Part shown: piece after piece, positions 915 through 50,501 of the stretch
How positions within the stretch are numbered: the stretch's first letter is position 1
Layout of the letters: every line of letters begins with the position of its first letter
Assembly (NCBI GenBank): GCA_050692555.1
Contig: JBOGVS010000012.1
Span: 5,993-69,992, forward strand
From: Actinomycetota bacterium
Lineage (GTDB): Bacteria > Actinomycetota > UBA4738 > CALAEC01
DNA: 64,000 nt
Direction: 5' to 3'
Made by a program: the position numbers and the translations under genes
The notes under the pieces: model-generated
The model's database searches: none
Seen by the model: only the letters and a program-made list of their open reading frames with translations
What the model was told of the DNA's origin: nothing

Positions 915-925
915 CTCGCCGTGAG

Positions 926-1966: not shown

Positions 1967-1967
1967 C

Positions 1968-5704: not shown

Positions 5705-5711
5705 CGGCTCC

Positions 5712-24637: not shown

Positions 24638-24638
24638 C

Positions 24639-26213
24639 GTGAGCGACCTGTACAAGGGAAGGCTGTTCGGGCGGTCGGTGCTGGAGGCAACGTTCCGCTC
24701 GTTCCACGGGACCGACCTGTTTCTCGGCGAGCTGCTGGCCGCCGACGACCCCGAACGCGCTCGCCGGTTCCTGTTCCGGGTGATCGAGGTGGCCTACGGC
24801 TCGGATTCCACCGATCCCCACTGGGCCGAACGCACCGCGGGCGCGTACATGGCCGGCGACCTGGCCGAGACCCCATACACCCTGCACGATCCCGAGCAGC
24901 GCCTGTACAAGGTGGCCACCTGCTCGCCGCTCGGATACCTGGACGCGGCCCAGGAGTTCCGGAAGCCCAAGTCGCTCCCCGCCCAGTTCGCCCGGGTCAC
25001 CTCCCCCACCCCGGAAGACTTCGAGTTCCTCCGTGGCCGGATGGGCGACCTCCGGGTGGGGCTGCTGCGCTCCGGCGAGGACACCATCGACCTGGAGGTC
25101 GGGGTTCGGGGGGACACCCTGACCTCCCACGTGGGGGTCTTCGCCACAACCGGCATGGGGAAGTCGAACCTCATGAAGGTCCTGGCCGGGACCATCCTGG
25201 AGTCCCAGGGCCGCTATGCCTTCCTCCTGTTCGACCCCCATGGGGAGTACCTCGACGGCGGCGGGGGGATCCGGCGGGGCCTTCGGGACCACCCCTGGTC
25301 CCCCGATCGTCTTCAGGTGTATGCCACCCGCCCGGGGTTGGGAGCCTCGGCCACGGCGCTTCGGCTCACGCTGGGAGAGATCACCCTCGGCGACCTCCAG
25401 ACCGCGTACGACTGGAGCCCGGCCCAGATCGACGCCATCCACCGCCTGGACCGGCTGTACCGGGAGGAATGGATGCCCACCGTGGCGGACGATGCCGAGG
25501 ATCCCGAGGAGCTGGCCAAGCAGACCGGCGCTGCCGCGTCGACGATCCAGGTCATCCGGCGTCGGGCGCAAAGGATCCTGGAGCTCCCGTGCATCAGCCG
25601 GGACGTGTCCCAGGCCTCGCTGTCGCAGCGGATCGTGGACGAGCTGGCCGAGGGTCGCTCGGTGCTGGTGGAGACCAGCGGGCTGTCGGACATGGAGGAG
25701 ATCCTGGTGGCCTCGGTGATCACCCGGCGGCTCCTGGACACCTACGGCTCGGCGTTCCTCGAGGATCGCGAGGCGTTTGCCGCGCTGCCCCCCACCCTGG
25801 TGGCCCTGGAAGAGGCCCAACGGGTGCTGTCGCGGGCCAAGCGCTCGGACGAGAACGTCTTCCCCCGGGTGGCCCGGGAGGGCCGGAAGTTCCGGGTGGG
25901 ACTGTGCGCCGTGAGCCAGCAGCCCAAGCTGATCGACGACGAGCTCCTGTCGCAGTTCAACACGTTCTTCATCCTGGGCCTGGCCGACGAGCGGGACCGG
26001 AACATCCTGCGGGCGTCCTCGAAGCAGGACATCAAGGACCTGGGGCCGGAGATCCAGACGTTGATGCCCGGTGAGTCCATCGTCACGAACCTCGAGGCTC
26101 CGTTCGCCCTGCCCGCCCGGGTGTACCTGTTCGAGGAGTACGTGAAGTCGGTGAAGGGTCCCGCTCCCCTCCCCGACCGGCCGGCTGGGGCTTCGAAGGG
26201 GTTCGCCGAGTAG
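24639..26213 (+). CDS. herA: HerA-family FtsK-like hexameric ATPase/helicase
   Basis: Walker A GVFATTGMGKSNLMKV. HerA-type Walker B LVALEEAQRV. Arginine-finger region. GTG start 2 nt after the nurA stop. Confidence 0.8.
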   Translation: MSDLYKGRLFGRSVLEATFRSFHGTDLFLGELLAADDPERARRFLFRVIEVAYGSDSTDPHWAERTAGAYMAGDLAETPYTLHDPEQRLYKVATCSPLGYLDAAQEFRKPKSLPAQFARVTSPTPEDFEFLRGRMGDLRVGLLRSGEDTIDLEVGVRGDTLTSHVGVFATTGMGKSNLMKVLAGTILESQGRYAFLLFDPHGEYLDGGGGIRRGLRDHPWSPDRLQVYATRPGLGASATALRLTLGEITLGDLQTAYDWSPAQIDAIHRLDRLYREEWMPTVADDAEDPEELAKQTGAAASTIQVIRRRAQRILELPCISRDVSQASLSQRIVDELAEGRSVLVETSGLSDMEEILVASVITRRLLDTYGSAFLEDREAFAALPPTLVALEEAQRVLSRAKRSDENVFPRVAREGRKFRVGLCAVSQQPKLIDDELLSQFNTFFILGLADERDRNILRASSKQDIKDLGPEIQTLMPGESIVTNLEAPFALPARVYLFEEYVKSVKGPAPLPDRPAGASKGFAE

Positions 26214-27350
26214 GTGGCCCGGCTCGTTGCGTTCGGCGACGCCCATCTGGGGCGCACCCACCTGGCTCACCTCCGCGACGAGGAGGGCCGGAACCTCCGG
26301 GAAGAGGACTTCCTGGCGTCCTTCGACTGGGCCGTGGCAAAGACGATCGAGCTGGAGCCCGATGGATTCCTGTGGCTCGGCGACATCTTCGACCACGCCC
26401 GCCCCTCGTACCGGGTGTTCACTCGCGTCCTGGTGGCACTCCGCCGGCTGGAGGAGGCGGGCCACCGCGGCGTAGCGATCAGCGGGAATCACGACACCCC
26501 TCGCCTCCGGGGAACGGGCTCGCCGTATGCGGCGCTGGAAGAGATCTTCGGCAACGTCACGTTCGCCTGGGCGATGGAGGCCCGGTCTGCGGAGATCGCA
26601 AGGGTACGGATCCATGCGGTGCCCCAGACCTTGACGGACGAGGAGTTCCGCGCGGAGGTGGAGCGGAGCGCGGCAGAGCTGCGGAAGGACGCCACCAGTG
26701 TCCTGCTGGCCCACGTGGCTCTGACCTCGCTCCCCTCTCGGGAATGGCGGGACATCAACGAGATCGAGGTCGAGGAGGCCGTGTTCGATCGCCGGTTCGA
26801 CCACGTGATCCTGGGCCACTATCACGTCCACCAGAAGGCGTCGAAGCGGACCTGGTACGCGGGGTCCACGGACTCGTTCTCGTTCGCCGACCGTCCGAAG
26901 GGCGCCGGGCCCAAGGGGATCGTCGTCCTCGACACCGAAAGCGGAAAGGTCGAGCACCACGCCAACCCGGGTGAGCGGCCTCTGGAGACCTATGGGATCG
27001 ATGCGGCCGGCCTGGGCCCCTCGGAGCTGGTGGAAGCGGTCGGCCGGGAGGCCGATGGCTGTCCCGATGGAGCCATCGCCAGGGTGTTCCTCAATGAGGT
27101 GGACCCCGCCAGCTACCGGCAAGTAACGCCCGACGACTGGCAGGAGGCGGTACCCGCGGCCGTCCACGTCCAGCCGGAACCCGGCTACTCCCTCGAGGCC
27201 CTGCCCGTCCAGGCCGGATCGGAGATCGGGCGGCTGGAGGTCGAGTGGGACGCCTACGTCGAGGGCCAGGACCTCACCGGCCTGGACCGTGACCGGGTTC
27301 GGGAGACCGGCCGTCGGTTCCTGGTGGAGGCCCAGGGCGAGTCGGCATGA
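26214..27350 (+). CDS. sbcD: Mre11/SbcD-family DNA repair exonuclease (calcineurin-like phosphoesterase)
   Basis: Phosphoesterase motifs I to IV (FGDAHLG, GDIFDH, GNHD, GHYH). Contiguous with the herA stop. Confidence 0.85.
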   Translation: MARLVAFGDAHLGRTHLAHLRDEEGRNLREEDFLASFDWAVAKTIELEPDGFLWLGDIFDHARPSYRVFTRVLVALRRLEEAGHRGVAISGNHDTPRLRGTGSPYAALEEIFGNVTFAWAMEARSAEIARVRIHAVPQTLTDEEFRAEVERSAAELRKDATSVLLAHVALTSLPSREWRDINEIEVEEAVFDRRFDHVILGHYHVHQKASKRTWYAGSTDSFSFADRPKGAGPKGIVVLDTESGKVEHHANPGERPLETYGIDAAGLGPSELVEAVGREADGCPDGAIARVFLNEVDPASYRQVTPDDWQEAVPAAVHVQPEPGYSLEALPVQAGSEIGRLEVEWDAYVEGQDLTGLDRDRVRETGRRFLVEAQGESA

Positions 27351-29623
27351 GGGTTCGCGAGCTCTCTCTTCGCAACTACCGGGTGTTCGAGGAGCTCGAC
27401 CTGGAGCTCCCGGCGCGGGTCATCGGCGTCTTCGGACCGAATGGCTCGGGCAAGACCACGATCTGCGAGGCCATCCAATATGGGTGCTACGGGAAGGCTC
27501 GCACCGACAAGTCGCAGATCCGGACCCACGGCGTGCTCACCGACTGTCAGGTCCGGGTGGTCTTCGAGCACGGCGGCCAGCAGTACGAGGTCCGCCGGTC
27601 GATCCGCGGCCGCAACCACCAGACCGACGCCGAGCTCTACGTGGGCGACGTGCAGCTGGCCTCGGGGGTCACGGAGGTCGACGCGGCCATCCAGGGCCTC
27701 CTTCGCATGGACGTCCAGGTGTTCCGCGCGTCGGTGTTCGCCGAGCAGAAGCAGCTGGACGCGTTCAGCGATGTGACCAAGGGCAAACGTAAGGACATGG
27801 TGCTGCGCCTGCTGGGGATCCGGCCCGTGGACGAGGCCCGGACGGTCTCCCGGAAGGAGGCCCGGGAGTGCAAGAAGGATGCCGACCGCCTGGCCGGCAC
27901 CCTTCCCGATCTCGCCGAGCAGGAGAAGGCCCTCCAGGAGGCGCGGACGGCCGCGAAGCAGGTCCAGAATGCCGCGGAGAAGGCCGCGGAGAACCTGCGC
28001 AACGCCCAGGAGCGGGACGGCGCTGCAGAGAAGGCCTTCGGTGAGGCGGATCGGATCCGCCAGGAGGCCGAGCGGCTGGCCACGGCCCGCCAGGTCGTGG
28101 CGGAGGAGGTCGAACGCCTCCTGGCCCACCACGCCGAAGTCGGCGATCGGATCGAGCGGCTTCGAGCCGATCTGGCCGCCCTGCCCGACCTGGAGCGCGA
28201 GCGCGAGCGCCTGTCGGACGCGGCCGAACGCCTGGTGCTGGGCAGGCGGCTGGCGGAGGTCGACGTGGACCTCCGGCAGTTGCGGGCCCGCCTGGCGAAG
28301 CTCCCGGAGCTCGACACCGAGACGGCGCTGGCGGAGCTCGAGACCGCCCAGAGAGAAGCCCGGGCCGCGGACCGGACCCACACCAAGGCCGAGTCGGCCC
28401 ATGAGCGAACCACCCGTGACCTCGCGGAAGCCGAAGACGCCCTGGCCAAGGCGGCCGAGGCCGACCCCTCACAAGCCTGCCCCACGTGTGGCCGTCCACT
28501 GGGGGATGACTTCCGGGAGTACCTGAAGCACTGCAGGGATCGGGTCCGTCTGGCCAAGGCCGAAGCCCGCACCGCCGCCACTGCGCTCAAGGCGGCCACC
28601 ACCGCCGCCACGGCCGCGGGACGACGACTGAACCAGGCCACCACGGCCGGCGAGGCGGCCCGTGAAGCGGCGGGAGCTCGGGCGGATCTCGGCACGCGGA
28701 TCGAGGAGTCGGAAGCGAAGCTGGCCGAGCTGGCCGAGCCGTTCCGGGGACAGGTTCCCGACCTCCAGGAGCTGGAGACCGACGCCCATCGAGCCCAGGA
28801 GATCGGCGCCCGGGTCGCGGAGCTCACCGGCGAACGGAAGCACCTCTCGGCCCTGGAGAAGGACCTGGGGAAGGCCGGCTCCGACCTCGAGGTCCGCCGG
28901 TCCAAGCTCGAAGCGCTGGACAAGGAGGCCGCCGCGCTGGCCTTCGATCCCGAGGACCACGCCAGGCTGCGGAAGGAACGCGACGAGGCCGAGCGCCTCC
29001 TGCATCAGGCCCAGGGAAAGGAACGCGAAGCCGCGGCCGCCACGGCCGAGGCGCGGCAGTTCGTGACCCGCCTCGAGGGTGCGTTGGAGCAGGCTCACCA
29101 GACCCGGGGAAAGGTCGAGGAGCTGCGCGACGAGGCCCGGTACCTCGATCGGGTCTCCGGCCTCCTCGAGGGGTTCCGCACCTACCTGTACGGCCGGATC
29201 GTCCCCGAGCTATCCAGAGAAGCGGAGGCCCTGTTCCGGGACCTAACCAGCAGCGAGTACGACGATCTCCGGATCGACGCAGACACGCTGGAGATCGAGA
29301 TCGCAGACGGGGATCGATACTTCCCCATCGAGCGGTTCAGCGGCTCGGAGAGCGACCTGGCGAACCTGGCCCTCCGGGTGGCCATCTCCACCCACCTGTC
29401 ACGGATGTGGGGGGCCGACGTGGGGATGCTGGTGCTGGACGAGGTCCTGGCCTCGCTCGACGTGGAGCGAAAGGATCTGTTCGTCCGGACCATGGCGAGG
29501 CTGGCCGGACGGTTCCACCAGGTGTTCGTGATCACCCATGCCGAGCAGGTGAAGGACCAGTTCCCGGCGACCCTCGAGGTTCGCAGGGTCGGCCGCCGCC
29601 GTAGTGAGGTCGTGCTGACGTAA
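27347..29623 (+). CDS. sbcC: Rad50/SbcC-family SMC-like ATPase with zinc hook
   Basis: Walker A GPNGSGKTT, long coiled coil, zinc-hook CPTCGRPL, signature SGSESD, Walker B/D-loop MLVLDEVLASLD. ATGA overlap with sbcD. Confidence 0.9.
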   Translation: MRVRELSLRNYRVFEELDLELPARVIGVFGPNGSGKTTICEAIQYGCYGKARTDKSQIRTHGVLTDCQVRVVFEHGGQQYEVRRSIRGRNHQTDAELYVGDVQLASGVTEVDAAIQGLLRMDVQVFRASVFAEQKQLDAFSDVTKGKRKDMVLRLLGIRPVDEARTVSRKEARECKKDADRLAGTLPDLAEQEKALQEARTAAKQVQNAAEKAAENLRNAQERDGAAEKAFGEADRIRQEAERLATARQVVAEEVERLLAHHAEVGDRIERLRADLAALPDLERERERLSDAAERLVLGRRLAEVDVDLRQLRARLAKLPELDTETALAELETAQREARAADRTHTKAESAHERTTRDLAEAEDALAKAAEADPSQACPTCGRPLGDDFREYLKHCRDRVRLAKAEARTAATALKAATTAATAAGRRLNQATTAGEAAREAAGARADLGTRIEESEAKLAELAEPFRGQVPDLQELETDAHRAQEIGARVAELTGERKHLSALEKDLGKAGSDLEVRRSKLEALDKEAAALAFDPEDHARLRKERDEAERLLHQAQGKEREAAAATAEARQFVTRLEGALEQAHQTRGKVEELRDEARYLDRVSGLLEGFRTYLYGRIVPELSREAEALFRDLTSSEYDDLRIDADTLEIEIADGDRYFPIERFSGSESDLANLALRVAISTHLSRMWGADVGMLVLDEVLASLDVERKDLFVRTMARLAGRFHQVFVITHAEQVKDQFPATLEVRRVGRRRSEVVLT

Positions 29624-29633: not shown

Positions 29634-30056
29634 ATGTCCGCGAGGGAGGAAAAGCCGCTGCTTCCGTTCACCAGGCTGGTGCTGGTGATCTCCGCGGTGG
29701 TGCAGGCGGCCTTCGGAGTGGCCTGTGTGTTCTCGCCCTCGTTCATGAACTCGGTGGCGCTGCCCGATCCACTGCCGCCGTCCTCCGACCTGGTCTATCA
29801 GTACTTCGGGGCCCTGTTCCTGGCGAACGCGTGGGGCGCGGTGTACGCGCAGCGACAGAAACGATGGGTGGCGGCTCGCACGTACCTGGCCATCTCCGGC
29901 CCGTTCGTCGCCCTCACCGTGGCCCTCACCGTGGCCGCCGCCGTCGGAGAGCCCGGAGTCCCCACAACCGTGTGGCTGTACGTGGGCCTGGCCGCCCTGT
30001 ACCTGCCCAGCGTGGCGTACGTGTGGGGCATGGAGTCCGCGCGACGACCTGTCTGA
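29634..30056 (+). CDS. Hypothetical membrane protein (4 TM)
   Basis: RBS aaggagg. Hydrophobic helices. No recognisable motif. Confidence 0.45.
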   Translation: MSAREEKPLLPFTRLVLVISAVVQAAFGVACVFSPSFMNSVALPDPLPPSSDLVYQYFGALFLANAWGAVYAQRQKRWVAARTYLAISGPFVALTVALTVAAAVGEPGVPTTVWLYVGLAALYLPSVAYVWGMESARRPV

Positions 30057-30079
30057 TCCGCCGTCAGTGGCTGCCACGC

Positions 30080-30472
30080 CTATCCGCGCTGACGGTCCTT
30101 CTTGACCACGAACGTGCCGGTGGCCCGGGTGGTAACCACCGGCTCGCCCAGCAGCTCGGCTGCGCTGTCGTTGACGTCGTAGCGGGGCTGGATGTACTTG
30201 CGGCACTCGAACTGGCACTTCCGGCTGGTGTTGCCCACGCTCACCACCTGCCCCGTGACCTCAAGGAAATCCCCCGCGTACACGGGGGCCAGGAACTCGA
30301 CCGATTCATATCCCGCCAGCAGGCCCTCGTCCCCGTCGTGGCGGATGGCCAGCTCGGTGGCTACGTCGCCGAACAGCTCCATGATCTTGGCACCGGCCAC
30401 CAGGTTCCCGCCGTAGTGCGCGTCGGTCTGGGCCATCCGCATCCGCAGCGTGCAGGTCGGCAGATCAGCCAT
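30080..30472 (-). CDS. kal: Hotdog-fold protein, 3-aminobutyryl-CoA ammonia-lyase (Kal)-like
   Basis: ~130-aa hotdog-size protein immediately downstream of kamD-kamE with an overlapping start. Assignment is contextual plus size/fold. Confidence 0.5.
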
Positions 30473-31214
30473 CTGGCTTCTTTCGGCCCAGGGCCCAGGC
30501 GAGGTACGAGGCCACCTCGCTCGGGGTGGTCCCCTTGGCGAACACCCGGTCGTAGCCCAGCTCGGCCGCCATGTCCGGAGAGAGACGCGGGCCGCCGGCG
30601 ATCATCAGGAACCGTCCCCGCAGCCCTCGCCGGTCAACCTCCTCGGCGAACTCCCGGAGGTGCCGGATGTGAGCGTCCTTCTGGGTGACCACCTGGCTGA
30701 TCAGGACGGCGTGGGCTCCTTCTTCCACCGCCCGCTCCGCCAGGTCACCGGCATCCACCTGGGATCGGAGGTTGATCACCCGAAAGCACCGGTACGACTC
30801 CAGCCCCTTGTCCCCCGCCCATCCCTTCACCGACAGGATGGCGTCCAGGCCCACGGTGTGCGCGTCGGTGCCCACCACCGCGCCGGCGATCACGGCCTCC
30901 TTCCGCCCGCCCAGCGCCTCCCGAACCTTCCGGGTCACCTCTTTCTGGTCGAGCAACGGATAGGGCCGCTCCTCCACGGTCACCGCGGACATGTCCACCG
31001 AGTGATCCACGCTCCCGTACACCACGAAGAACGTGAACCGGGGACCCATGGCCTTCCGGTGCACCACCAGAGGCCGGTGGATCCCCATCTTCTCGGCTAG
31101 CTGACGGGCGGCGCCCTCCGCCTTCTCATCCGAGGGGATCGGAAGGGTGAACGAGACCTGGACCTTGCCGTCGTCGGTGTCGTCCCCGTACGGCCGGATT
31201 CCCGCCTCGGTCAT
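30465..31214 (-). CDS. kamE: Lysine/beta-lysine 5,6-aminomutase beta subunit (B12-binding, KamE-like)
   Basis: Cobalamin-binding DxHxxG motif (TDAHTVG) in a Rossmann-like domain. ~250 aa. Overlaps kamD. Confidence 0.75.
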
Positions 31215-32803
31215 GGCTGCACCTTCCGTCCGTGCTCCCAGAGCTCGAGGAACGGGTTGAGGTATCCCTCCTCGATCTCCACCACGCCGTCCAGACCGTG
31301 CCCGCCGTCCGGTGCCCGGCTGGTGTCCGCGAATTCACCGGCCCGGATGGCCTCGAACATCCCCCGGTCGGCCACGCGCCGGAGCATCTCGACGGTGTCC
31401 TGAAGCACGCGCATGGCCCGTTCCCGGATCCGCCCGTCCCGCGGTGGCCACCACTCGTCGGCCACGTGCTTCGCCGTGCGGACCATGTACCGGGCGCTCT
31501 CGATGGCCAGGTCCCGGTCGGAGAGCCACGGGGTATGGATGCCCTCGGTCATCATCCCGATCAGCAGGATCTCCTGCCCGGTGAGCACCCCGGTCAGGTG
31601 GAACATCCCGTCGAGCAGGTACCCGAGGAAAACGTTGCCGGTCATGTGCTTGGTCGGCGGCATGTACTTCAGCGGCGCCTCGGGGAACAGCTCGCGCACC
31701 AGCTGGGCATGGGCCAGCTCCATCAGCCACTGGTCGGGAAGGTCCGGGTCGATCTCGAACGCGTGCCCCAGCCCCAGTTGCCACGGCTCCAGGCCGGCAT
31801 CGAGGCCGAACCGCTCGTTGATCAGCTGGGAAGCCACCACGGTGTGGGCCGCTTCGACCGCGTCGGCAGTGGTCAGGTAGTTGTCCTCGCCGGTATTGAT
31901 GATGATCCCGGCCCGGGCGTGGATCATCCGGCTGAAGCGCTGGTCGATGAACGTACGCTTCATGTTGATGTCCCGAAAGATGATCCCGTACATGCAGTCG
32001 TTGAGCATCATGTCGAGCCGTTCCAGCGCGGCCAGGGCGCCGATCTCGGGCATGCACAGCCCGCTGGCGTAGTTGGTCAGGCGCACGTACCGGCCGACCT
32101 CGCCCGAGACCTCGTCCAGGGCGTCCCGCATCAGCCGGAAGTTCTCCCGGGTCGCATAGGTGCCTGCATACCCCTCGGTGGTGGGCCCTTCGGGAACGAA
32201 ATCCAGGAGGGACTGGCCCGTGGAGCGGATCACCGCCACGATGTCGGTCCCCGCCCGGGCAGCGGCCTGGGCCTGAGGGATGTCCTCGTGGATGTTCCCG
32301 GTGGCCACGATGAGGTAGATCCACGGCTTCTCCGGGTCACCCAGACGCCTGAGGAGGTCGTCGCGGTCCCGGCGACGCTCCAGGATCCTGGCGTCGGCTC
32401 GACGGGCGGAGGCCAGGGCGGCCTCCCGAGCAGGGGCGGGATCGTCCGGCCATCGGAACGTGAGATCGCCGGTCTCCACCCCGGGTCCGAGCTCGTCGAT
32501 CCCGATCCCCTGTCGCACCAGGGCGTCGAACACGGGGATGGCCACTCCCCGCCCGAGTCCCATGTCCTCCCGGACCCGGTCCACGACGAGATTGGGGTAC
32601 GGACGGGCGTCCACCCCCTCCCCCACCGCGCCGTCCAGGCCACACAGGCGCAGCACCGACCGCTCGATGGCCACGGTGGTGTGAGCAGCGATCATGTCCT
32701 CGACCGGCCGACATACCGCGGCCGCGAGGTCGCGGGCCTCCTGCACGAGCGCGTCGTCGAGCCCGAGCTTCTTCACCGGGGCCGAGTGTATCCGGGCCGG
32801 CAC
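31211..32803 (-). CDS. kamD: Lysine/beta-lysine 5,6-aminomutase alpha subunit (KamD-like TIM-barrel)
   Basis: N-terminus AAHTTVAIERSVLRLCGLDG closely resembles KamD. ~530 aa. Confidence 0.75.
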   Translation of the reverse strand: MPARIHSAPVKKLGLDDALVQEARDLAAAVCRPVEDMIAAHTTVAIERSVLRLCGLDGAVGEGVDARPYPNLVVDRVREDMGLGRGVAIPVFDALVRQGIGIDELGPGVETGDLTFRWPDDPAPAREAALASARRADARILERRRDRDDLLRRLGDPEKPWIYLIVATGNIHEDIPQAQAAARAGTDIVAVIRSTGQSLLDFVPEGPTTEGYAGTYATRENFRLMRDALDEVSGEVGRYVRLTNYASGLCMPEIGALAALERLDMMLNDCMYGIIFRDINMKRTFIDQRFSRMIHARAGIIINTGEDNYLTTADAVEAAHTVVASQLINERFGLDAGLEPWQLGLGHAFEIDPDLPDQWLMELAHAQLVRELFPEAPLKYMPPTKHMTGNVFLGYLLDGMFHLTGVLTGQEILLIGMMTEGIHTPWLSDRDLAIESARYMVRTAKHVADEWWPPRDGRIRERAMRVLQDTVEMLRRVADRGMFEAIRAGEFADTSRAPDGGHGLDGVVEIEEGYLNPFLELWEHGRKVQP

Positions 32804-32810
32804 TCCCGGC

Positions 32811-33098
32811 TCAGGAGGAAGGTTGTGCGGGAGGCTCGGAGGCCGGGGCCGGCTCCGGCTCGGCCGTGGGCACCGGCCGGGTGATCGGGGGCGGCCCCGG
32901 CTTGGGCCGGGCCTTGCGGCGCGAGAACGGGGCCCACCACGCCAGCAGGAGCCCCAGAACCACGCCGATGGCCGGGAACCCGAAGACCGCCATGTTGTCG
33001 AGGGGGCGGATCCCGAACTGCTGGAGGTCGACGGCCACGAACAGTCCGAAGAGCAGACCGGAGACCGCGCCGAGCACCGGCCGCCCTCGGAACTTCAC
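32811..33098 (-). CDS. Small membrane protein with Pro-rich C-terminal tail
   Basis: Two TM helices followed by a PKPGPPPITRPVPTAEPEPAP tail. 8 nt upstream of kamD. Confidence 0.4.
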   Translation of the reverse strand: MKFRGRPVLGAVSGLLFGLFVAVDLQQFGIRPLDNMAVFGFPAIGVVLGLLLAWWAPFSRRKARPKPGPPPITRPVPTAEPEPAPASEPPAQPSS

Positions 33099-33727
33099 GC
33101 CATCCCCTTCTTCCCGGCGGCGGCCACGCCCATCCCGATCGCCGTCACCAGTGTCAGACCGGCCGCCGTGGCGCCGGGCACCGTGGTCAGGGGGTTGCCC
33201 TCGATCAGCACCATCGCGGACCCATCGCACCGGCCGCCCTTCCCGACGTGCTCCCCCTCGATCTCGTACAGGCCCACCAGGTCGAAGGGAAGCAGCCGGC
33301 CGTACGCCGCGTCGAGCGGATAGTCGCCCTCGGCCCGCTTTGCCCCTCCCCGATTCGGGTGGCTCCACTCGGCCACCTTCACTGAGTTCGGTCCCACCAC
33401 CACGGCGATGAACCCGCTGTGGTCCTTGATCACCTTCCGACTGGTCCCCACGTAGTGGATGTCGAGGTTCCCCTCGTTCGGAAGGACCACGGGGTTCGCG
33501 GCGGTGTCGTTGGCCGGCGTGTACGTCTGGTTTCCGATGGTGGCCTTCGCGTTGCATCCCCCGGTAACCCCCGCGGAGACCGGGGAACCGATCAGGAGCA
33601 CGGTGGGGATGGCGAGCGCGGCGAGGTGGAGGACGCGGCGCACGTGGTGCCGGGCTCGTGCGTGGCGGCTGCGGAGCGAACCAACCACTCGAGGAGGAGC
33701 GTAGTTCCCGGGCCTCCGAGCGGTCAA
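33095..33727 (-). CDS. Secreted / membrane-anchored hypothetical protein (exact start uncertain)
   Basis: Signal-peptide-like LHLAALAIPTVLLIGSPVSAG and a C-terminal hydrophobic anchor. 4-nt overlap with the downstream small gene. Confidence 0.4.
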   Translation of the reverse strand: MTARRPGNYAPPRVVGSLRSRHARARHHVRRVLHLAALAIPTVLLIGSPVSAGVTGGCNAKATIGNQTYTPANDTAANPVVLPNEGNLDIHYVGTSRKVIKDHSGFIAVVVGPNSVKVAEWSHPNRGGAKRAEGDYPLDAAYGRLLPFDLVGLYEIEGEHVGKGGRCDGSAMVLIEGNPLTTVPGATAAGLTLVTAIGMGVAAAGKKGMA

Positions 33728-33804
33728 CGGGAGGAACCGGACGGAACGGGCGACGATCGGCCACGGACGCCGTGGGAGCAGGGGCGCGGGTACGATGGCC
33801 CGAC

Positions 33805-35406
33805 GTGAGCGCGACGGCGTACGACGTGGCCATCATCGGCGGCGGGCACAACGGCCTGGTGTGCGCCGCATACCTGGCCCGAGCCGGACGTCGGGTGGTG
33901 GTCCTGGAGCGCCGGCATCTGGTGGGCGGGGCCGCGGTCACCGAGGAGCCGTGGCCGGGGTTCCGGGTCTCCACGGCCTCGTACGTGGTGAGCCTCCTCC
34001 AGGACAAGATCGTCCGAGACCTGGACCTCCCCAGGCACGGCTACGAGGTCTACCCGCTGGACCCCGCGTACTTCACCCCGTTCCCCGACGGCCGGGGGAT
34101 CCTGGTGTGGGACGAGCCCCATCGAGCCGCGGAGGAGATCGCCCCGTTCAGCCGCCACGATGCCGAGGCATACCTGCGGTACTCGAGGGACCTGGACCGG
34201 CTGGCGGACTTCGTCCGGCCGTTGCTGCTCCGAACCCCGCCGGGGATGGAGCTCAGCTCGCTGGACGATGTGCTCGACGCCGCCTCGTTCGGCGCCTACC
34301 TCCTGGGCCACCGGCGCATCCTCCCGGACGTCATCGACCTGATGACGATGTCGGTGGCGGACTTCCTCGATCGGTACTTCGTGAACGAAGCGGTGAAGGG
34401 GGCGCTGTGCCCCGGCGGAGTAATCGGGATGTGGGGCGGCCCGATGAGCCCCGGCTCCGCCTATGTGCTCCTCCACCACCGGATGGGCGACGTCAACGGG
34501 ATCCGCGGGGGGTGGGGATTCGTCCGCGGGGGGATGGGAGGGGTGTCCGAGGCCATCGCCGCGGCGGCCCGGGAGGCGGGAGCCGAGATCCGCACCACCG
34601 CCCCGGTGGCCAGTGTCGACATGCGGAACGGGCGGGCCAACGGGGTCCTCCTGGCCGACGGGACGTGGATCAAGGCCCGGGCGGTGGCCTCGGGGACCCA
34701 CCCCCGAACCACGTTCTTCGACCTGGTGGGCCGGGAGCACCTTCCCGAGGATCTGGTCACCGAGATCGAGCGGTTCCGGACCCGGGGCTCGTCGGCCAAG
34801 GTCAACCTGGCGCTCTCGGAGCTCCCCGACTTCCTGGCCCGCCCCGGGACCCAGCTCGACCTCCAGCACCCCGAGTTCATCATCAGCCCCTCGGTCGAGT
34901 ACGTGGAGCGAGCGTGGGACGATGCGAAGCTCGGCCGGCCCTCGGCGCGACCACTGCTCGACTGCGTGATCCCCACCACGAAGGACCGAGCGCTGGCCCC
35001 GGAGGGGGCCCACATCCTGACCGCGTTCGTCCAGTACGCCCCCTACGATCTGGCCGGTGGGCGGTCCTGGGACCAGGAGCGTGACGCCCTGGGCGACACC
35101 GTGATCGACACGATCGCCGAGTACGCGCCCAACGTGAAGCGGGCGGTGATCCATCGTGAGGTGGTGACCCCGTTCGACCTCGAGCAGCGTTTCGGGCTCC
35201 TGGGAGGGAACATCTTCCAGGGCGAGATGGCCCTCGACCAGCTGTTCAACATGCGGCCGGCGGTCCAGGCCGGCGCCTACCGGACCCCGGTCCGGGGCCT
35301 GTACCTGTGCGGCTCGGGCACCCACCCCGGTGGCGGGGTGATGGGGGCGCCGGGGCACAACGCCGCTCGTACGATCCTCCGGGACCTCCGAACGTGGCGG
35401 GGCTGA
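33805..35406 (+). CDS. FAD-dependent oxidoreductase, phytoene-desaturase (CrtI)-like family
   Basis: YDVAIIGGGHNGLVCAAYLARAG dinucleotide-binding motif. ~530 aa amine-oxidase/CrtI architecture. GTG start at residue 50 of the ORF. Confidence 0.75.
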   Translation: MSATAYDVAIIGGGHNGLVCAAYLARAGRRVVVLERRHLVGGAAVTEEPWPGFRVSTASYVVSLLQDKIVRDLDLPRHGYEVYPLDPAYFTPFPDGRGILVWDEPHRAAEEIAPFSRHDAEAYLRYSRDLDRLADFVRPLLLRTPPGMELSSLDDVLDAASFGAYLLGHRRILPDVIDLMTMSVADFLDRYFVNEAVKGALCPGGVIGMWGGPMSPGSAYVLLHHRMGDVNGIRGGWGFVRGGMGGVSEAIAAAAREAGAEIRTTAPVASVDMRNGRANGVLLADGTWIKARAVASGTHPRTTFFDLVGREHLPEDLVTEIERFRTRGSSAKVNLALSELPDFLARPGTQLDLQHPEFIISPSVEYVERAWDDAKLGRPSARPLLDCVIPTTKDRALAPEGAHILTAFVQYAPYDLAGGRSWDQERDALGDTVIDTIAEYAPNVKRAVIHREVVTPFDLEQRFGLLGGNIFQGEMALDQLFNMRPAVQAGAYRTPVRGLYLCGSGTHPGGGVMGAPGHNAARTILRDLRTWRG

Positions 35407-35916: not shown

Positions 35917-36783
35917 GAGCTCCGAGACGGCCATGGCTCCCAGCACCAGCAGGGCGCCGATCCACTGGTGGAACGCCAGTCGCTCCCCCAGCCACACCGC
36001 GGAGAATGCCGCCGCGGACACCGACTCCCCGGCCAGGATGACCACCGCCCGGGCCGCGGTGACCTGGCGCTGGGCCAGGACCTGCAGGGTGTAGGCCACC
36101 CCGGACCCCAGCACCCCGGTGACCAGCAGCAGGTGCCAGGCATCTACGGCGCCCTCCGGGCGCAACCCCTCCCCCAGGGCCAGAGTGGCCACCACGTGCA
36201 GGGCCGCCGCTCCACCCATCTGGGCCGCCGACAAGAGGACCGGCAGGTGCCGGCCGACGAAGCGGCCGAGGGTCACGACGTGCGCGGCCCAGGCCACCGA
36301 CCCCGCCAGGACCAGGAGATCGCCGAATCGAGGGCGGAGGTCCCGGAGGCTGGGGACGGACAGGAGGGCCAGCCCGACCACCGAGAGGACCACGGCGATC
36401 CACACCGCTCGTCGGGCGGACTGACGGAACAGCAGAACCCCGAGGATGGGAACGAACACCACATACAGGCCGGTGATGAATCCCGCGTTGGTGGCGGTGG
36501 TCCGAGCCAGGCCTTCGGTCTGCAGCGTGTAGCCCAGGAAGATGAACGAGCCAAGCAGGAGGCCGGGACCGACCACCCGCCGGACGTCCGCCCCCCGGAT
36601 CTGGCGCCGGGCCACCAGCGGGATGGCCGCCACGATCGTCAGGAACCCGATCACCCGGGTCCAGGCCATGAACGGGTAGATGCCCGTCACCACGATCCCC
36701 AGCTTCGCGGCGGGAAACGTGGCCCCCCAGAGGATGGGTGTCAGCAGGAGCAGCAGTCCCGGATCGATCCGGCGCTCGGCCAT
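35869..36783 (-). CDS. EamA/DMT-family transporter
   Basis: Ten TM helices with a duplicated EamA-domain pattern. Start at M79. TGATG overlap with the amidohydrolase stop. Confidence 0.75.
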   Translation of the reverse strand: MAERRIDPGLLLLLTPILWGATFPAAKLGIVVTGIYPFMAWTRVIGFLTIVAAIPLVARRQIRGADVRRVVGPGLLLGSFIFLGYTLQTEGLARTTATNAGFITGLYVVFVPILGVLLFRQSARRAVWIAVVLSVVGLALLSVPSLRDLRPRFGDLLVLAGSVAWAAHVVTLGRFVGRHLPVLLSAAQMGGAAALHVVATLALGEGLRPEGAVDAWHLLLVTGVLGSGVAYTLQVLAQRQVTAARAVVILAGESVSAAAFSAVWLGERLAFHQWIGALLVLGAMAVSELSARRADLRAEAATPV

Positions 36784-38270
36784 CAGCGAGCGAAGACCTC
36801 GCGGCCACGCGAGACCGTGAGGACCGGACGCAGCTCTCGAATGTCGTAGATCTCGAACGGGTCGTCGTCGTAGGCCGCCAAGTCTGCGGCCGCCCCGGGC
36901 TCCAGGGTTCCCTTCTTCTCCAGGTGAGCCAGACGCGCGGCGCCGACGGTATGGAGCCGGATGGCTTGCTCCCGGGTCATCCGCTGTTCGGGGTCGTGGT
37001 GGTTCTCCAGGGCCCACACGGCCAGCATCGGATCGAGCGGAGTCACCGGCGTGTCGGACCCAGCGCCCACCTCCAGGCCCCGGGCGACCAGATCACGGAA
37101 CGGGTTCATCCGCCGGGCGCGCTCGGGGCCCAGCCGCCGCTCGTACATCCCGCCCTCATGACCCCACAGCGCGTCGAACGCCGGCTGCACGGAGATGGCC
37201 AGTCCCAGCGCCGCGGCCCGCTCCACCTGCGATGGCGAGGCCATCTCGAAGTGCTCGAGGCGGTGCCGGCGAGCCCGGAAATGCCGGCGGCTGCGGGAGT
37301 CGAGGCTTCCGTAGACCCGGGCCCAGACCTTGAGCGCCTGTTCGATCGCCGCGTCGCCGATCACGTGGAGCCCGGTCTGGAGCCCGGCCAGATGGGCGTT
37401 GTGCAGGAACTCCGCGAGCTCGTCGTCGGCGTAGGTCAGGGTCCCCCGGTCCTCATGGTCCGCATACGGCTCGTCGAGGAGCGCGGCGGTTCTGGCTCCG
37501 ATCGAGCCGTCCAGGAACATGTCGCCGCCGATCCTTGGTTGGCCGAGGTCTCCCATCACCCAGGGGATGTCGCGATCAGCGATGTACGTCACCGCGTCGA
37601 GCGGGAGGTCGGCGATGTGGCCCAGGAGGACCTCCACGTCCCGGCGCCCTCGCTTCGCGGGGATGGCCATCTCGTGCACGCAGGTCACCCCCCGAGCCGC
37701 GGCCAGGCTGGCGGCCTCGAGCTGGGCTCCCCGGATCGCCGCGGCCGGCAGGGAATAGAAATACCACCGCTGGGCCTGGGAGTTCGCTTCGTGACGAAGG
37801 ACCCCGATGGGCGCGCCGGATCCGTCCCGTTCCACGCCCTCCAGGTCCTCGACCCCCGAGGCCTTCAGGGCCGCGGTGTTGGCCAGGCTCACGTAGCCGT
37901 CGGCCCGAAGGATCAGGAGCGGCTCCTGGGATGCGCGGTCCAGCTCGGCCATCGACGGGAACGCGGGGTCGTCCCATCTGGTCTCGTCGAAGGACTGGCC
38001 GAGCGCAGGTCCCTGTCGGTGGGCCGCGAACTCCCGGGCGGCCTCAAGCAGCTGGTGCCGGGAGCGCACCTCGGAGAGATCCAGCCCGGCGAGCGCGGTC
38101 CCCGTCCCCGAGAGATGGACGTGGGCGTCGACGAACCCGGGGGCGATGGTGGTGCCCGGAAGCTCCACGGTGCGCTGAGCCGGCGGAGGCTCGCCCATGC
38201 CCACCCGCTCGACGTGACGATCGTCGACCAGGACCCAGTCCGCCTCGCCAAGGAGCGTGAGGGTGCGCAC
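36783..38270 (-). CDS. Metal-dependent amidohydrolase (amidohydrolase_3 family)
   Basis: GFVDAHVHL metal-binding motif, downstream His/Asp ligands (HVIGD, GSDTPV). GTG start chosen to avoid overlapping the divergent hisD start. Confidence 0.7.
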   Translation of the reverse strand: MRTLTLLGEADWVLVDDRHVERVGMGEPPPAQRTVELPGTTIAPGFVDAHVHLSGTGTALAGLDLSEVRSRHQLLEAAREFAAHRQGPALGQSFDETRWDDPAFPSMAELDRASQEPLLILRADGYVSLANTAALKASGVEDLEGVERDGSGAPIGVLRHEANSQAQRWYFYSLPAAAIRGAQLEAASLAAARGVTCVHEMAIPAKRGRRDVEVLLGHIADLPLDAVTYIADRDIPWVMGDLGQPRIGGDMFLDGSIGARTAALLDEPYADHEDRGTLTYADDELAEFLHNAHLAGLQTGLHVIGDAAIEQALKVWARVYGSLDSRSRRHFRARRHRLEHFEMASPSQVERAAALGLAISVQPAFDALWGHEGGMYERRLGPERARRMNPFRDLVARGLEVGAGSDTPVTPLDPMLAVWALENHHDPEQRMTREQAIRLHTVGAARLAHLEKKGTLEPGAAADLAAYDDDPFEIYDIRELRPVLTVSRGREVFAR

Positions 38271-38352
38271 GCGCGATGCTCGATAGAGGGTCTTCAACCC
38301 GGACCTCCCCGCGAAGCCCGGCGATTCTATCCGTCCCCGTACAATCGCAGGC

Positions 38353-46968: not shown

Positions 46969-48402
46969 TCAGGTGAGCGCCGGGACCCGTTCGGCTCCCG
47001 CGGCGAAGCGACGCCAGTACTCCCTGCCCTCCTCGGACAGGGTGGGAACGGGATCGTAGTACGGGTACCGCCGGCCGAGGGCCTCGGGATCGTCGAACTC
47101 GATCCCGGTGCGATAGTTCTTCGTCCAGTAGGAGATCCCGAGAACGCGGTCGTAGTCCTCGATCTGGTTCACCCACCGCTTCCCCACATAGGGGACGTCG
47201 CACACGATCCGCGGCGTGGCGAAGCCGGGAAGGTACCCCATGATAGCGTGCTGGAGTTCCTGTGCTTCCCACACCGCGGTCCGCCAGTGCTCCGAGTTCG
47301 GGATCATGTCGCACATGTAGAAGTAGTACGGCATCACCTTGGCGTGGTCGAGCAGCGTGAAGCACAGCTCCAGCAGCTCCTTGGGGGTGGTGTTGACGCC
47401 GCGGAGGAGCACCCCCTGGTTCCGGACGTCCCGAAGCCCGCACTCCAGAAGCTTGCGGGTCGCCGTAGCCACCAGCGGGGTGACTTGGTTGGCGTGATTG
47501 ACGTGGGTGTGCACGGCGATGTCCACGCCCCGTTGCCGCGCAACGGTGGCCATCCGCTCGCACGCGGCCAGGACGTCGTTCTGGAGGAAGTGCTGCGGCA
47601 GACCCATGAGGCCCTTGGTGGCCAGCCGGATGTCCCGGATGTTCTCGATCTCCAGGAGCTGCATGACGAAGTCCTCGAGGCGCCGGATCGGCACGTTGGC
47701 CATGTCCCCACCCGAGACCACCACGTCGCGGACCGACGGCGTGGCCCGCAGGTACTCGAGCATGCGGTCCCATCGTTCTTGCTGCCTCTCCTCGAACTTG
47801 TACTTGAGGATCTGCGGCGTGTCGTTGCCCACCAGGTCCATCCGGGTGCAGTGACCGCAGTACTGGGGACAGGTGGCGATCATCTCCGCGAGGACCTTCG
47901 TCGGGTAGCGGTGGGTGAGGCCTTCCACGGCCCACATGTCGGCCTCGTGGAGGCTGTCCCGCGCCGCCAGCGGATGGCTGGGGAACTCCGGGTCCCGGTC
48001 GGACAGCACGGGGAGCATGTACCGGCGCACCGGGTCACTCCACAGGTCCTGCTCGTCCATGGTGTTGAGCATCTGGGGCGGGACGAGCATGGACATCGTG
48101 GCCCGCTGTCGCTGGTCGCGCTCGAGGTCGGCCATGAACTCGTCGGTGGCGTACTCCCCTAGTGCGTCCTTCAACTGCCCGAGGTTCTTGACCGTGTGGG
48201 CTCGTTGCCACTGGGCGCTCTCCCACTGCTCCGGGGTGACCTCTCGGTAGCCAGACAGACGCCGCCACTCCGGTTCCCTGAACTCCCGGGGCAGGGGGTA
48301 TCGGAACGGCTGGTCGGCCGCGTGGGCCTGCAGCCTGCGGTGGCCCGGTCTCTGTGGGTCCATTGGCTCGCTCGCTGGAAGGATCGGCTCGTGAGAGCTC
48401 AT
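46969..48402 (-). CDS. kamA: Lysine 2,3-aminomutase family radical-SAM enzyme (KamA-like)
   Basis: CPQYCGHCTRMDLVG radical-SAM CxxxCxxC in KamA-family context. Trailing PLP-binding region. Start at M72 (alternative at M85, coordinate 48363). Confidence 0.75.
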   Translation of the reverse strand: MSSHEPILPASEPMDPQRPGHRRLQAHAADQPFRYPLPREFREPEWRRLSGYREVTPEQWESAQWQRAHTVKNLGQLKDALGEYATDEFMADLERDQRQRATMSMLVPPQMLNTMDEQDLWSDPVRRYMLPVLSDRDPEFPSHPLAARDSLHEADMWAVEGLTHRYPTKVLAEMIATCPQYCGHCTRMDLVGNDTPQILKYKFEERQQERWDRMLEYLRATPSVRDVVVSGGDMANVPIRRLEDFVMQLLEIENIRDIRLATKGLMGLPQHFLQNDVLAACERMATVARQRGVDIAVHTHVNHANQVTPLVATATRKLLECGLRDVRNQGVLLRGVNTTPKELLELCFTLLDHAKVMPYYFYMCDMIPNSEHWRTAVWEAQELQHAIMGYLPGFATPRIVCDVPYVGKRWVNQIEDYDRVLGISYWTKNYRTGIEFDDPEALGRRYPYYDPVPTLSEEGREYWRRFAAGAERVPALT

Positions 48403-48466: not shown

Positions 48467-49018
48467 CTAGGACAGGTGAGGCACGTCGGAGGCCAGGAGC
48501 CCGTAGAGGTGGCAGTCGTACCCGCCTGAGCCGTGGGGGCATCCGCTCCGGAGGGTCCCCTCGCGGTGGAAGCCGAGCTTCTCCGCCACCCGCTGGCTGG
48601 CCGCGTTTTCCACACCGGCCCTGAGCTCGAGGCGGTACAGCCCCAGCGTTCGGAACCCGAAGCCGACGATCGCTCGTCCCGCTTCCGTGGCGTACCCGCG
48701 TCCGGTCACGTCCGAGCGGACCCAATACCCCATCTCCCCGATCCGCTGGTCCGGCCTCGACCAGCGGATGCCGATCCCGCCGACGACCGATCCCTCCTGG
48801 AGGATGGCGAAGTCGTACTCCCGCCCGGCGGACCAGGCCTTCACGGCGCCTTGAACGAACGCCTCTGTCCGGTCACGAGACGTCTCCGGCGCCCAGGCCA
48901 TCCAGTCCCGCAGATCCGCCAGTGAGGCCTCCACGGCCTCCCACGTCCGCTCGGCATGCGTCGGCTCGATCGGCTCGAGGCGAAGCCAGTCCGTCTCGGT
49001 GGGCTCTCGGGGGATCAC
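48467..49018 (-). CDS. GNAT-family N-acetyltransferase
   Basis: Acetyl-CoA-binding motif A region (RGYATEAGRAIVGFGF). ~180 aa. 4-nt overlap with the upstream kdd-like gene. Confidence 0.8.
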   Translation of the reverse strand: MIPREPTETDWLRLEPIEPTHAERTWEAVEASLADLRDWMAWAPETSRDRTEAFVQGAVKAWSAGREYDFAILQEGSVVGGIGIRWSRPDQRIGEMGYWVRSDVTGRGYATEAGRAIVGFGFRTLGLYRLELRAGVENAASQRVAEKLGFHREGTLRSGCPHGSGGYDCHLYGLLASDVPHLS

Positions 49019-50037
49019 CAGGCGTACCGGCGCTCGAACACGGCTCGCAGGTCCGGGGTCTCTCGGATCATCTGGAGCGCCAGGTCCGCGTGACCGGGAA
49101 CGTATCCCGACCCGATCTGGAGGCCGACGTCCTTGCCCAGGCCCTCGGCGATCAGCGCCGCCGCGGTGAAGGAGGTAGCCATGGAGAAGAAGTACACGTC
49201 GCCTCCCTCCCGAGCCAGGAGGATCGAGGCCCCCTCCGTCCCCGGGACGTTGACGCAGTTGACCACGAGGTCGGCCACCCCGTCGTCATCTCCGCCCAAC
49301 ACCTCCGCGGCGGCCCGAAGACATCCGACCGGGTCCTGCGCGTCGGCCGCCAGCACTTCCTTGAAGCCCAGTCCCCGGAGGATCGCGATGTCCCGCTCGT
49401 GGTGCACCACCCCGGCCACCCGCTCCGAGAGGCCCCGGGCCGCGACCATGGCCAGGATCCCCGACTTCCCGCCCGCGCCCACGACCAACGTGCGTCTTCG
49501 GCCCGGCGCCAACCGACGCACCTGCGCCGGGGCTCCGGCCACGTCCAGAACGGCCAGGCACAGGTTCGCCGGGAGGTCATCCGGAAGCCGGGCGTACGGC
49601 GCCGACTCGAACAGGATCGCCCGCCCCGCGACGGGAACCTGCTCGGAGCTCCCGTCCCACTCGGAGAGGTCGTCGATGATCAACGGCGTCAGCGTCAGTG
49701 AAACCAGCGTGGCGATCCGGTCGCCGGGGCGGACATCGGCCCGCCGCTCCCCCACCTCCGCCACGGTGCCCACCAGCATCCCACCGGATCCGGTGACCGG
49801 GTTGTGCATCTTCCCTCGCGCCCGCACGATGTCGAGGACCCGCCCCCGCATCCGTTCCGGGTCGCCGCCCCGCTCTTGGCGGATCTGGTGGAAGGACGCC
49901 GCGTCGAGGTTCAGCCGGCTCACCTCGATCAACGCCTCCCCTCCTCGAGGCGGCGGGGAGGGGTCCAGTCGTTCGGCCTGCTGGGGAAGGGCACCGGGCG
50001 GCTCGATCACCCGGTGGAGGCCGTAGGGCGAAGTCAT
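49015..50037 (-). CDS. kdd: L-erythro-3,5-diaminohexanoate dehydrogenase-like (Kdd family) NAD(P) oxidoreductase
   Basis: ~340 aa with Rossmann motif GAGGKSGILAM. Size and context (kamA operon) match Kdd. Family assignment is by resemblance, not a database search. Confidence 0.55.
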   Translation of the reverse strand: MTSPYGLHRVIEPPGALPQQAERLDPSPPPRGGEALIEVSRLNLDAASFHQIRQERGGDPERMRGRVLDIVRARGKMHNPVTGSGGMLVGTVAEVGERRADVRPGDRIATLVSLTLTPLIIDDLSEWDGSSEQVPVAGRAILFESAPYARLPDDLPANLCLAVLDVAGAPAQVRRLAPGRRRTLVVGAGGKSGILAMVAARGLSERVAGVVHHERDIAILRGLGFKEVLAADAQDPVGCLRAAAEVLGGDDDGVADLVVNCVNVPGTEGASILLAREGGDVYFFSMATSFTAAALIAEGLGKDVGLQIGSGYVPGHADLALQMIRETPDLRAVFERRYAW

Positions 50038-50060
50038 ATGGCTCTATTATTCGGCCCACC

Positions 50061-50501
50061 GTGGACGACAAGGACCTCCGGATCCTGACCATCCTCCAGG
50101 AGGACGCCCGGGCCACGTACGCGCAGATCGCCTCCCAGGTCGGGCTCTCCGCGTCGTCGGTGCACGACCGCGTCCGGAAGCTGGAGCGGCGCGGGGTGAT
50201 CCTCGGGTACCGGGCCTCCCTCGATCCGCACGCGGTGGGTCTGGGAGTCACCGCCCTGGTCTCGGTGGTGCCCCTCGATCCTTCGCAGCCCGACGATCTC
50301 CCCGACCGCGTGGTGGAGTTCCCGGAGGTGGAGGACTGCTTCTCCGTGGCCGGCGTGGAGAGCTACGTCCTCAAGGTACGGACCCGGACCACCGGCGACC
50401 TCGAGGACCTGCTCCGGCGCCTTCGGGAGAAGGCCGGGGTCCAGACCAGGACAACGGTGGTGCTGTCGATCCCCTTCGAGGGACGCCCCCTCAAGCCTTG
50501 A
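50061..50501 (+). CDS. Lrp/AsnC family transcriptional regulator
   Basis: N-terminal HTH (YAQIASQVGLSASSVHDRVRKLE) plus RAM domain. Divergent from the kamA-GNAT-kdd operon. Confidence 0.85.
   Translation: MDDKDLRILTILQEDARATYAQIASQVGLSASSVHDRVRKLERRGVILGYRASLDPHAVGLGVTALVSVVPLDPSQPDDLPDRVVEFPEVEDCFSVAGVESYVLKVRTRTTGDLEDLLRRLREKAGVQTRTTVVLSIPFEGRPLKP

Follow-up and report, generated by a model that had tools for sequence, protein, structure and literature searches.

A cluster of genes for a lysine 5,6-aminomutase lies on the minus strand of contig JBOGVS010000012.1 of an Actinomycetota bacterium, within a 64-kb window (the whole stretch of 64,000 nucleotides that was analyzed; GC content ~69%). 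Genes in this window were called from the GC content of third codon positions (GC3) together with a list of open reading frames (ORFs). Five consecutive minus-strand ORFs, spanning positions 30080–33727, look coding (GC3 ~0.85–0.87); in the direction of reading they comprise a gene for a secreted, anchored protein and a gene for a small membrane protein (together, the envelope pair), followed by kamD and kamE, for the alpha and beta subunits of the aminomutase, and kal, for a 3-aminobutyryl-CoA ammonia-lyase (Table 1). The secreted-protein gene overlaps the small-protein gene by 4 nt (GTGA), kamD overlaps kamE by 4 nt (ATGA), and kamE overlaps kal by 8 nt. An earlier reading of this DNA (the original prediction) described five real ORFs with these features, and that description was confirmed apart from two start-codon corrections; it also proposed that the enzymes are functionally coupled to the envelope proteins and that they may act on a beta-amino acid other than that of lysine breakdown, and neither proposal was upheld. 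The comparisons below make it likely that the locus carries an ordinary actinobacterial gene set for the breakdown of lysine via beta-lysine, with the envelope genes forming an independent pair that stands outside the pathway.

KamD, KamE and Kal are assigned to their families by NCBIfam profile hidden Markov models (HMMs) at equivalog level. KamD scores 723.2 bits on NF052384 (equivalog cut-off 600) and matches PF09043 at 4e-231; KamE scores 311.3 bits on NF052385 (equivalog cut-off 280) and contains the Pfam domains PF16554 (OAM dimerisation) and PF02310 (B12-binding); Kal scores 175.4 bits on NF052388 (equivalog cut-off 160) and matches PF03061 (4HBT, hotdog fold). The three identities first proposed are thereby borne out, and the 530-aa and 249-aa proteins both classify as lysine 5,6-aminomutase rather than as members of another B12 family. 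KamD matches three solved lysine 5,6-aminomutases over its whole length (phmmer; E = 1.7e-180 to 8t0v and 1e-171 to 1xrs), KamE matches the beta chains of 9q1a and 8t0v (E = 1.8e-69), and the nearest solved structure to Kal is that of beta-alanyl-CoA ammonia-lyase (4mtu, E = 1.5e-27). Reference proteins were taken from canonical anaerobe loci, which were obtained with KamD of Clostridium sticklandii as query; among these, the metagenome locus L093 encodes kal, kce, kdd, kamA, kamB, kamC, kamD and kamE, all scoring above the NCBIfam cut-offs, and its KamD is 51% identical to that of the window (tblastn).

In the C. sticklandii enzyme, pyridoxal 5′-phosphate (PLP) is contacted by Lys144 and His133 of the beta subunit and by Ser238, Tyr263, Asn299, Arg184, Arg268, Ser189, Gly187, Gln188 and Tyr236 (PMC3958899). 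Alignment of the window proteins to 1xrs_A and 1xrs_B shows all 12 cofactor and active-site residues to be identical, including ten of ten in the alpha subunit (R184, G187, Q188, S189, Y236, S238, Y263, R268, D298, and N299). In the beta subunit, DAHTVG, which is the DxHxxG B12 motif already recognized in KamE by the original prediction, aligns to residues 131–136 of 1xrs_B, and the lysine of VKGWAG aligns to residue 144. The ratio of nonsynonymous to synonymous substitution rates (dN/dS) of kamD is 0.12, which points to purifying selection. The window enzyme resembles KamDE of C. sticklandii and its relatives (1XRS, 8T0V, 9Q1A) in its TIM-barrel alpha subunit, in a beta subunit that combines a dimerisation domain with a Rossmann B12 domain, in the DxHxxG His-on motif, the PLP lysine on the beta subunit and all of the listed PLP contacts, and in similarity along the whole length; it differs in that its host is a high-GC actinobacterium and in that no KamB or KamC genes lie nearby.

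Table 1. Coordinates of the aminomutase cluster, the envelope pair and associated features in the 64-kb window.
Feature	Position	Strand	Evidence or remark
kamD, gene for the alpha chain of lysine 5,6-aminomutase, 521 aa from the conserved GTG	31211..32776	-	NF052384, PF09043; longest ORF (530 aa) extends to 32803
kamE, beta subunit, 249 aa, cobalamin-binding and PLP-lysine domain	30465..31214	-	NF052385; PF16554, PF02310
DAHTVG, DxHxxG His-on cobalamin motif (His133-beta of 1XRS)	30849..30866	-	Alignment to 1xrs_B
Codon of the PLP-binding lysine (Lys144-beta of 1XRS; VKGWAG)	30825..30827	-	Alignment to 1xrs_B
kal, 130-aa hotdog protein, 3-aminobutyryl-CoA ammonia-lyase	30080..30472	-	NF052388, PF03061
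TACACT, -10-like hexamer 8 nt 5′ of the kamD GTG	32785..32790	-	Invariant in 6 sequences; putative leaderless promoter
990-bp block with both envelope genes and their upstream region	32800..33789	.	Not in sister genome L001
Secreted, C-terminally anchored beta-sandwich protein, 182 aa	33095..33643	-	ORF could reach 33727
Small two-helix membrane protein, 95 aa, lineage-specific Pro-rich tail	32811..33098	-	Fixed partner of the secreted protein
kdd, L-erythro-3,5-diaminohexanoate dehydrogenase	49015..50037	-	NF052381, 247 bits (cut-off 200)
KamA-family radical SAM aminomutase, probable lysine 2,3-aminomutase	46969..48402	-	TIGR03820, 181 bits (cut-off 525)
Lrp/AsnC-type regulator, divergent from kdd	50061..50501	+	LysM, Lrp and AsnC models, all below cut-offs
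CrtO/CrtI-like FAD oxidoreductase, divergent neighbour, outside the system	33805..35406	+	Family searches

The canonical lysine fermentation pathway is reportedly that of Kreimeyer et al. 2007. Judged from the family assignments, from which the enzyme activities and the direction of metabolic flux are predicted, kamD–kamE–kal would be the downstream half of the actinobacterial lysine-to-crotonyl-CoA ("lysine fermentation") pathway. KamA, encoded 16 kb away, would convert L-lysine to beta-lysine; KamDE, with adenosylcobalamin (AdoCbl) and PLP, would move the terminal amino group, yielding 3,5-diaminohexanoate; Kdd, also encoded 16 kb away, would oxidise 3,5-diaminohexanoate to 3-keto-5-aminohexanoate; a cleavage enzyme that the window does not encode would produce 3-aminobutyryl-CoA; and Kal would deaminate 3-aminobutyryl-CoA to crotonyl-CoA. 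The host is probably aerobic, and the role of the pathway is likely to be catabolism to crotonyl-CoA rather than butyrate fermentation.

The original prediction placed the cluster physically apart from kamA and kdd, which is correct: the group that contains them lies 14–16 kb from kamD–kamE–kal on the same strand and consists of kdd, a GNAT acetyltransferase gene, the gene for a KamA-family radical S-adenosylmethionine (SAM) enzyme, an M20 peptidase gene and the divergent gene for an Lrp/AsnC regulator. Window Kdd is above the NF052381 equivalog cut-off (247 versus 200 bits). In a scan for relatives of KamD, in which one genome per species was kept, more than 588 loci were recovered and the best 80 were all from Actinomycetota; within 10 kb of kamD in these 80, kamE was present in 80, kal in 76 (following kamE), kdd in 71, and kamA in 65. 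Most often the genes run kamA, kdd, kamD, kamE, kal, in some loci with an Amidohydro_3 gene between kdd and kamD, and in most loci kdd lies directly upstream of kamD. The window KamA homologue is 61–73% identical to the products of kamA beside kdd–kamD in these 65 of 80 loci, while with a canonical KamA it shares only 31% identity. In 10 related loci, an Lrp homologue lies beside the cluster. Because most of the 80 loci keep kamA–kdd–kamD–kamE–kal together, the contiguous cluster is the common state and the split in the window is derived; the split is partly common to the related locus L002. The chromosomal neighbourhood itself is old and shared, since a fused Lnt–Ppm1 gene lies downstream of the cluster in the window and separate lnt and ppm1 genes directly follow kal in Streptosporangiales. 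That Actinobacteria carry genes of the lysine pathway was remarked on by Vital et al. (2014; PMC3994512), the one mention that we found in the literature on an actinobacterial beta-lysine route.

The clusters of Actinomadura, Actinoallomurus, Herbidospora, Spirillospora, and Frankiales metagenome-assembled genomes carry the same five genes as the window (KamD 60–66% identical), lack kce and kamBC, and have lnt and ppm1 downstream; unlike them, the window cluster is split, with kdd and kamA 14–16 kb off, and has the envelope pair, crtO, the his operon and a HerA/Mre11/Rad50-like block interposed. The DNA between the two groups holds a reverse-transcriptase fragment, the full his operon, and genes for an Amidohydro_3 protein, an EamA transporter and the CrtO-like oxidoreductase. 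Compared with the canonical kal–kce–kdd–kamA–kamB–kamC–kamD–kamE cluster (e.g., L093), the window has kamA, kdd, kamD, kamE and kal, four of them at equivalog level; it differs in being without kce, kamB and kamC, in having its genes spread over 20 kb in two units, and in its divergent KamA.

The genes missing from this comparison were sought by tblastn in the window, in 90 actinobacterial loci (L001–L090) and in 80 anaerobe loci that are often truncated, with the L093 proteins as queries, of which Kce scores 460 bits on NF052387. KamB, KamC, and Kce gave no hit in the 64-kb window. The original prediction had stated that no reactivase, kdd, or kce lies in the stretch 30080–33727, and this is borne out; reactivase and kce are moreover absent from the whole window. 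In the 90 actinobacterial loci KamB and KamC were each found in none, and Kce was found in three (3/91 with the window), all from Herbidospora and all next to kdd; in the 80 often truncated anaerobe loci, KamB was found in 34, KamC in 40 and Kce in 51. As kce candidates, those ORFs of the window that have a fitting size were considered, together with the flanking families that are conserved, and none is a BKACE. These counts indicate that the lack of KamBC and the near lack of a clustered kce are a trait of the actinobacterial version of the cluster and not of this locus.

The two proteins encoded upstream of kamD have the envelope features first ascribed to them, as judged by hydropathy: the secreted protein carries a signal-like helix at its N-terminus and, at its C-terminus, a hydrophobic helix with a basic tail (KKGMA), and in the small protein a Pro-rich tail comes after two hydrophobic helices. 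The probable start of the secreted protein is at 33643 (182 aa), which matches the start calls in its relatives. Neither protein has a Pfam, NCBIfam or PADLOC match, and the homologues of the secreted protein fall into 21 clusters, every one named hypothetical. Two Cys residues, a YTPANDT motif and EGNPLxT are conserved in the secreted family, with both Cys and the residues Y, P, N, D, E and G invariant. A structure model of the secreted protein (mean predicted local distance difference test score, pLDDT, 72.8) shows a beta-sandwich flanked by the signal helix on one side and the anchor helix on the other, and gives weak, generic structural matches only. The small-protein family comprises at least 680 proteins, typically of 59–63 aa, of which the few named ones come from Acidimicrobiia; the Pro-rich tail is not a feature of the family at large. 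The dN/dS ratio is 0.23–0.25 for the secreted protein and 0.23–0.31 for the small protein, compared with 0.12 for the flanks. Two roles were considered and rejected: LPXTG-type sortase anchoring of the secreted protein, given that the conserved motif reads EGNPLxT, which is neither LPXTG nor LAXTG (helix and basic tail do occur), and an anti-phage role for the pair, for which PADLOC gave no hits. Throughout the family, EGNPLxT with a hydrophobic helix and then a basic tail behind it (33095–33200 in the window) resembles a protein-sorting signal.

The pair was traced with profile HMMs in 175 loci and the window, a set that includes 160 other kamD loci (L001–L080 and L091–L170). The secreted protein was found in 16 sequences, and the small protein is encoded directly downstream of it in all 16, usually with its gene overlapping the preceding one by 4 nt. 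The pair adjoins kamD in four sequences only: the window, L084 (from the window's own species) and the short metagenome contigs L089 and L090. Neither gene was found in any of the 160 other kamD loci, and the remaining 12 pair-bearing sequences present it in unrelated contexts, never with kamDE nearby, next to genes for aconitase, AlaDH, LuxR-type regulators, an aldo-keto reductase, a major facilitator superfamily (MFS) transporter and an aminotransferase. This distribution indicates that the pair is a self-contained, conserved two-gene unit of Actinomycetota. In two of the unrelated contexts (L083, 5214–9103, and L171, 2739–6552), a gene for an Rv2466c-like thiol oxidoreductase precedes the pair, and an ORF of 789–791 aa with no Pfam match follows it with overlapping stop and start codons; the pair may there belong, with these two genes, to a larger conserved unit.

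The closest genome to the window, L001 (KamD 91% identical), is colinear with it on both flanks of the pair: positions 1–801 of L001 correspond to window 34590–33790 and positions 804–7805 to window 32799–25805, so that window 32800–33789, a block of 990 bp, is missing from L001. The block is likewise missing from L002 (KamD 83% identical), and it is present in L084, L089 and L090, where it is under purifying selection. Flanking proteins of L089 and L090 are 91–96% identical to those of the window, and their secreted protein is ~79% identical. The 990-bp block, whether gained or lost, is dispensable for kamDE–kal. In the proposed history, the ancestor of a small clade would have acquired the envelope pair, which came to lie between crtO and kamD. 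Measured over 268–612 nt, the distances that separate the window, L089, L090, and L001 are star-like; the pair-bearing L089 is nearest to the pair-less L001 (over 268 nt), which hints that L001 may have lost the block. That the pair stands before kamD looks like a chance outcome of local genome history. A mobile-element origin of the block was considered and rejected: no terminal direct or inverted repeats beyond chance were detected, GC3 is the same as in the flanks, and the one 15-nt inverted repeat at the block compares with an expected count of ~0.4 by our own estimate.

The start of kamD was examined in an alignment of six sequences (the window, L084, L089, L090, L001, and L002). The GTG at 32803, at which the longest ORF begins, is unconserved and is deleted in L089, whereas the block GTGAAGAAGCT (VKKL..., VKKLGLDD), with the GTG at 32776, is invariant in all six. 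Because the second GTG is conserved and the first is not, kamD most likely starts at 32776, which would give a KamD of 521 aa. The stop codon of the small-protein gene then lies 34 nt from the kamD start, and of the gene overlaps first described, those between kamD and kamE, between kamE and kal, and between the two envelope genes stand, while the one between the small-protein gene and kamD does not. A second invariant block, TACACTCG, ends 3–5 nt before GTGAAGAAGCT, and the hexamer TACACT, which occurs once in the window, ends 7–8 nt 5′ of the kamD GTG in all six sequences, whether the pair is present or not. In L001, the start of the divergent crtO gene is only 28 nt from that of kamD. In leaderless actinobacterial genes, a TANNNT hexamer usually stands 7–8 nt ahead of the start codon. 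The invariance of TACACT at this distance, with or without the pair, suggests that kamDE–kal most likely keeps its own leaderless promoter (TACACT, 7–8 nt, GTG). No consensus sigma-70 promoter was found in 29900–34000, as expected from the GC content and the promoter type, and an Rfam scan of the entire window for a riboswitch or other RNA control gave no match.

Several observations weigh against reading the locus as an ordinary lysine set beside an independent pair. At least three diverged lineages have retained the pair here, with purifying selection acting on it, and it lies on the same strand as kamD and only 34 nt upstream; an intrinsic terminator between pair and kamD was searched for and none was detected, so transcriptional read-through from the pair into kamD is possible. 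On the side of the pathway, the KamA homologue scores 181 bits on TIGR03820, under the lysine 2,3-aminomutase cut-off of 525, and with no kce within the 64-kb window the completeness of the pathway is unproven for this genome. The low TIGR03820 score, set against the conserved kdd–kamDE partnership in 65 of 80 loci, points to window KamA as a member of a divergent actinobacterial KamA subgroup.

The functional coupling that was originally proposed would make the five genes one operon whose envelope proteins work for the aminomutase pathway, for example by taking up, sensing, or exporting a beta-amino acid; we consider this very unlikely. The genes share one strand, with short gaps and no terminator found between them, and their arrangement is kept in the window, L084, L089 and L090 (dN/dS of the envelope genes 0.23–0.31), but the pair is missing from the 160 other kamD loci and, at the exact site, from L001 and L002, it stands in unrelated contexts in 12 other sequences, and kamD has its own conserved −10-like hexamer and start. 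Nor is either protein transporter- or sensor-like, with no family hits and a fold that is a generic beta-sandwich. A narrower form of the idea, that the small clade alone recruited the pair as the leading genes of a five-gene transcript and as an envelope component for beta-lysine catabolism (such as substrate capture or sensing), is very unlikely as well.

A different alternative takes the locus for the remnant of a decaying pathway, its cluster broken by insertions, without kce and reactivase, and its genes no longer cooperating. The split order (kdd–GNAT–kamA–M20, his operon, amidohydrolase, crtO, envelope pair, kamDE–kal) and the failure to find kce, kamB and kamC in 64 kb are what decay would leave, but all ORFs are full length with catalytic residues intact, the dN/dS of kamD is 0.12, and Actinomycetota as a rule have neither kce nor kamBC near the cluster (kce in 3/91, kamBC in 0/91), so that their lack is no defect of this genome; such decay is very improbable.

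D-Ornithine 4,5-aminomutase OraSE (3KOW) is likewise an AdoCbl- and PLP-dependent aminomutase of the same fold; unlike it, the window enzyme consists of separate alpha and beta chains that are not OraE, and the match is distant, the OraE model giving 128.6 and 116 bits with the window proteins, far below its cut-off of 800. The position of Asp298 is held by His225 in ornithine aminomutase (PMC3958899). That the KamDE-like enzyme uses another substrate (ornithine or another beta- or omega-amino acid) and that the cluster stands outside lysine catabolism is very improbable: it would fit the absence of kce and reactivase from the window, the split from kamA and kdd, and the description of lysine 5,6-aminomutase as less substrate-specific than ornithine 4,5-aminomutase (PMC3958899), but the equivalog scores, the poor OraE scores, the presence of Asp298 in place of His225, and the Kal, Kdd and KamA orthologues that accompany kamDE in most related loci all speak against it, and a different substrate is unlikely given that all 12 residues of the solved lysine 5,6-aminomutase are retained.

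Several features of the surrounding DNA were recorded alongside the two gene groups. The starts of the divergent kdd and lrp genes are 23 nt apart (50038–50060), and AATAAT stands 8 nt before the kdd ATG, a leaderless layout like that of kamD. The M20 peptidase gene (45609–46955, minus strand) and the GNAT gene (48467–49018, minus strand) flank kamA in this clade only; among the scanned loci, the M20 gene was found in L002 alone and GNAT gave two weak hits (28–31% identity). These two enzymes may carry out acetylation and deacetylation of beta-lysine; the GNAT protein is without an AblB match. The reverse-transcriptase fragment beside the M20 gene (44812–45426, minus strand; 204 aa) looks truncated, is present in L002 at 53% identity, and has its best matches in defence-type DRT/UG families (E ~1e-17). 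The his operon, hisD-C-B-H-A-F-I-G, is complete (38353–44531) and is joined by a small ORF (44528–44812), the whole segment spanning 38297–44883; in L002, the reverse-transcriptase fragment directly adjoins the Amidohydro_3 gene (L002 2851 = window 44884; 2976 = window 38296), so that the his-operon segment accounts for a 6.6-kb difference from L002 and helps to split the lysine cluster. The Amidohydro_3 protein (504 aa; 36783–38297, minus strand) is encoded 4 kb upstream of kamD, and its gene lies between kdd and kamD in ~16 of the 80 actinobacterial loci; it may be an unrecognized member of the pathway. On the other side of the cluster, a HerA/Mre11/Rad50-like block of four genes (23576–29623, plus strand) lies between kal and the fused Lnt–Ppm1 gene (20711–22930, minus strand).

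Read as an ordinary lysine breakdown set with an independent neighbour, the locus would hold a standard KamDE–Kal set, and its apparent envelope coupling would be a lineage-specific juxtaposition. The set kamA–kdd–kamDE–kal is widespread in Actinomycetota (more than 580 genomic loci). That these clusters are without KamBC prompts one to ask what keeps a suicide-prone B12 enzyme active in these mostly aerobic bacteria, and that they are almost always without a clustered kce, how 3-keto-5-aminohexanoate is cleaved. The secreted beta-sandwich protein and its ~60-aa two-helix partner form an undescribed conserved pair of Actinomycetota that could merit the attention of specialists.

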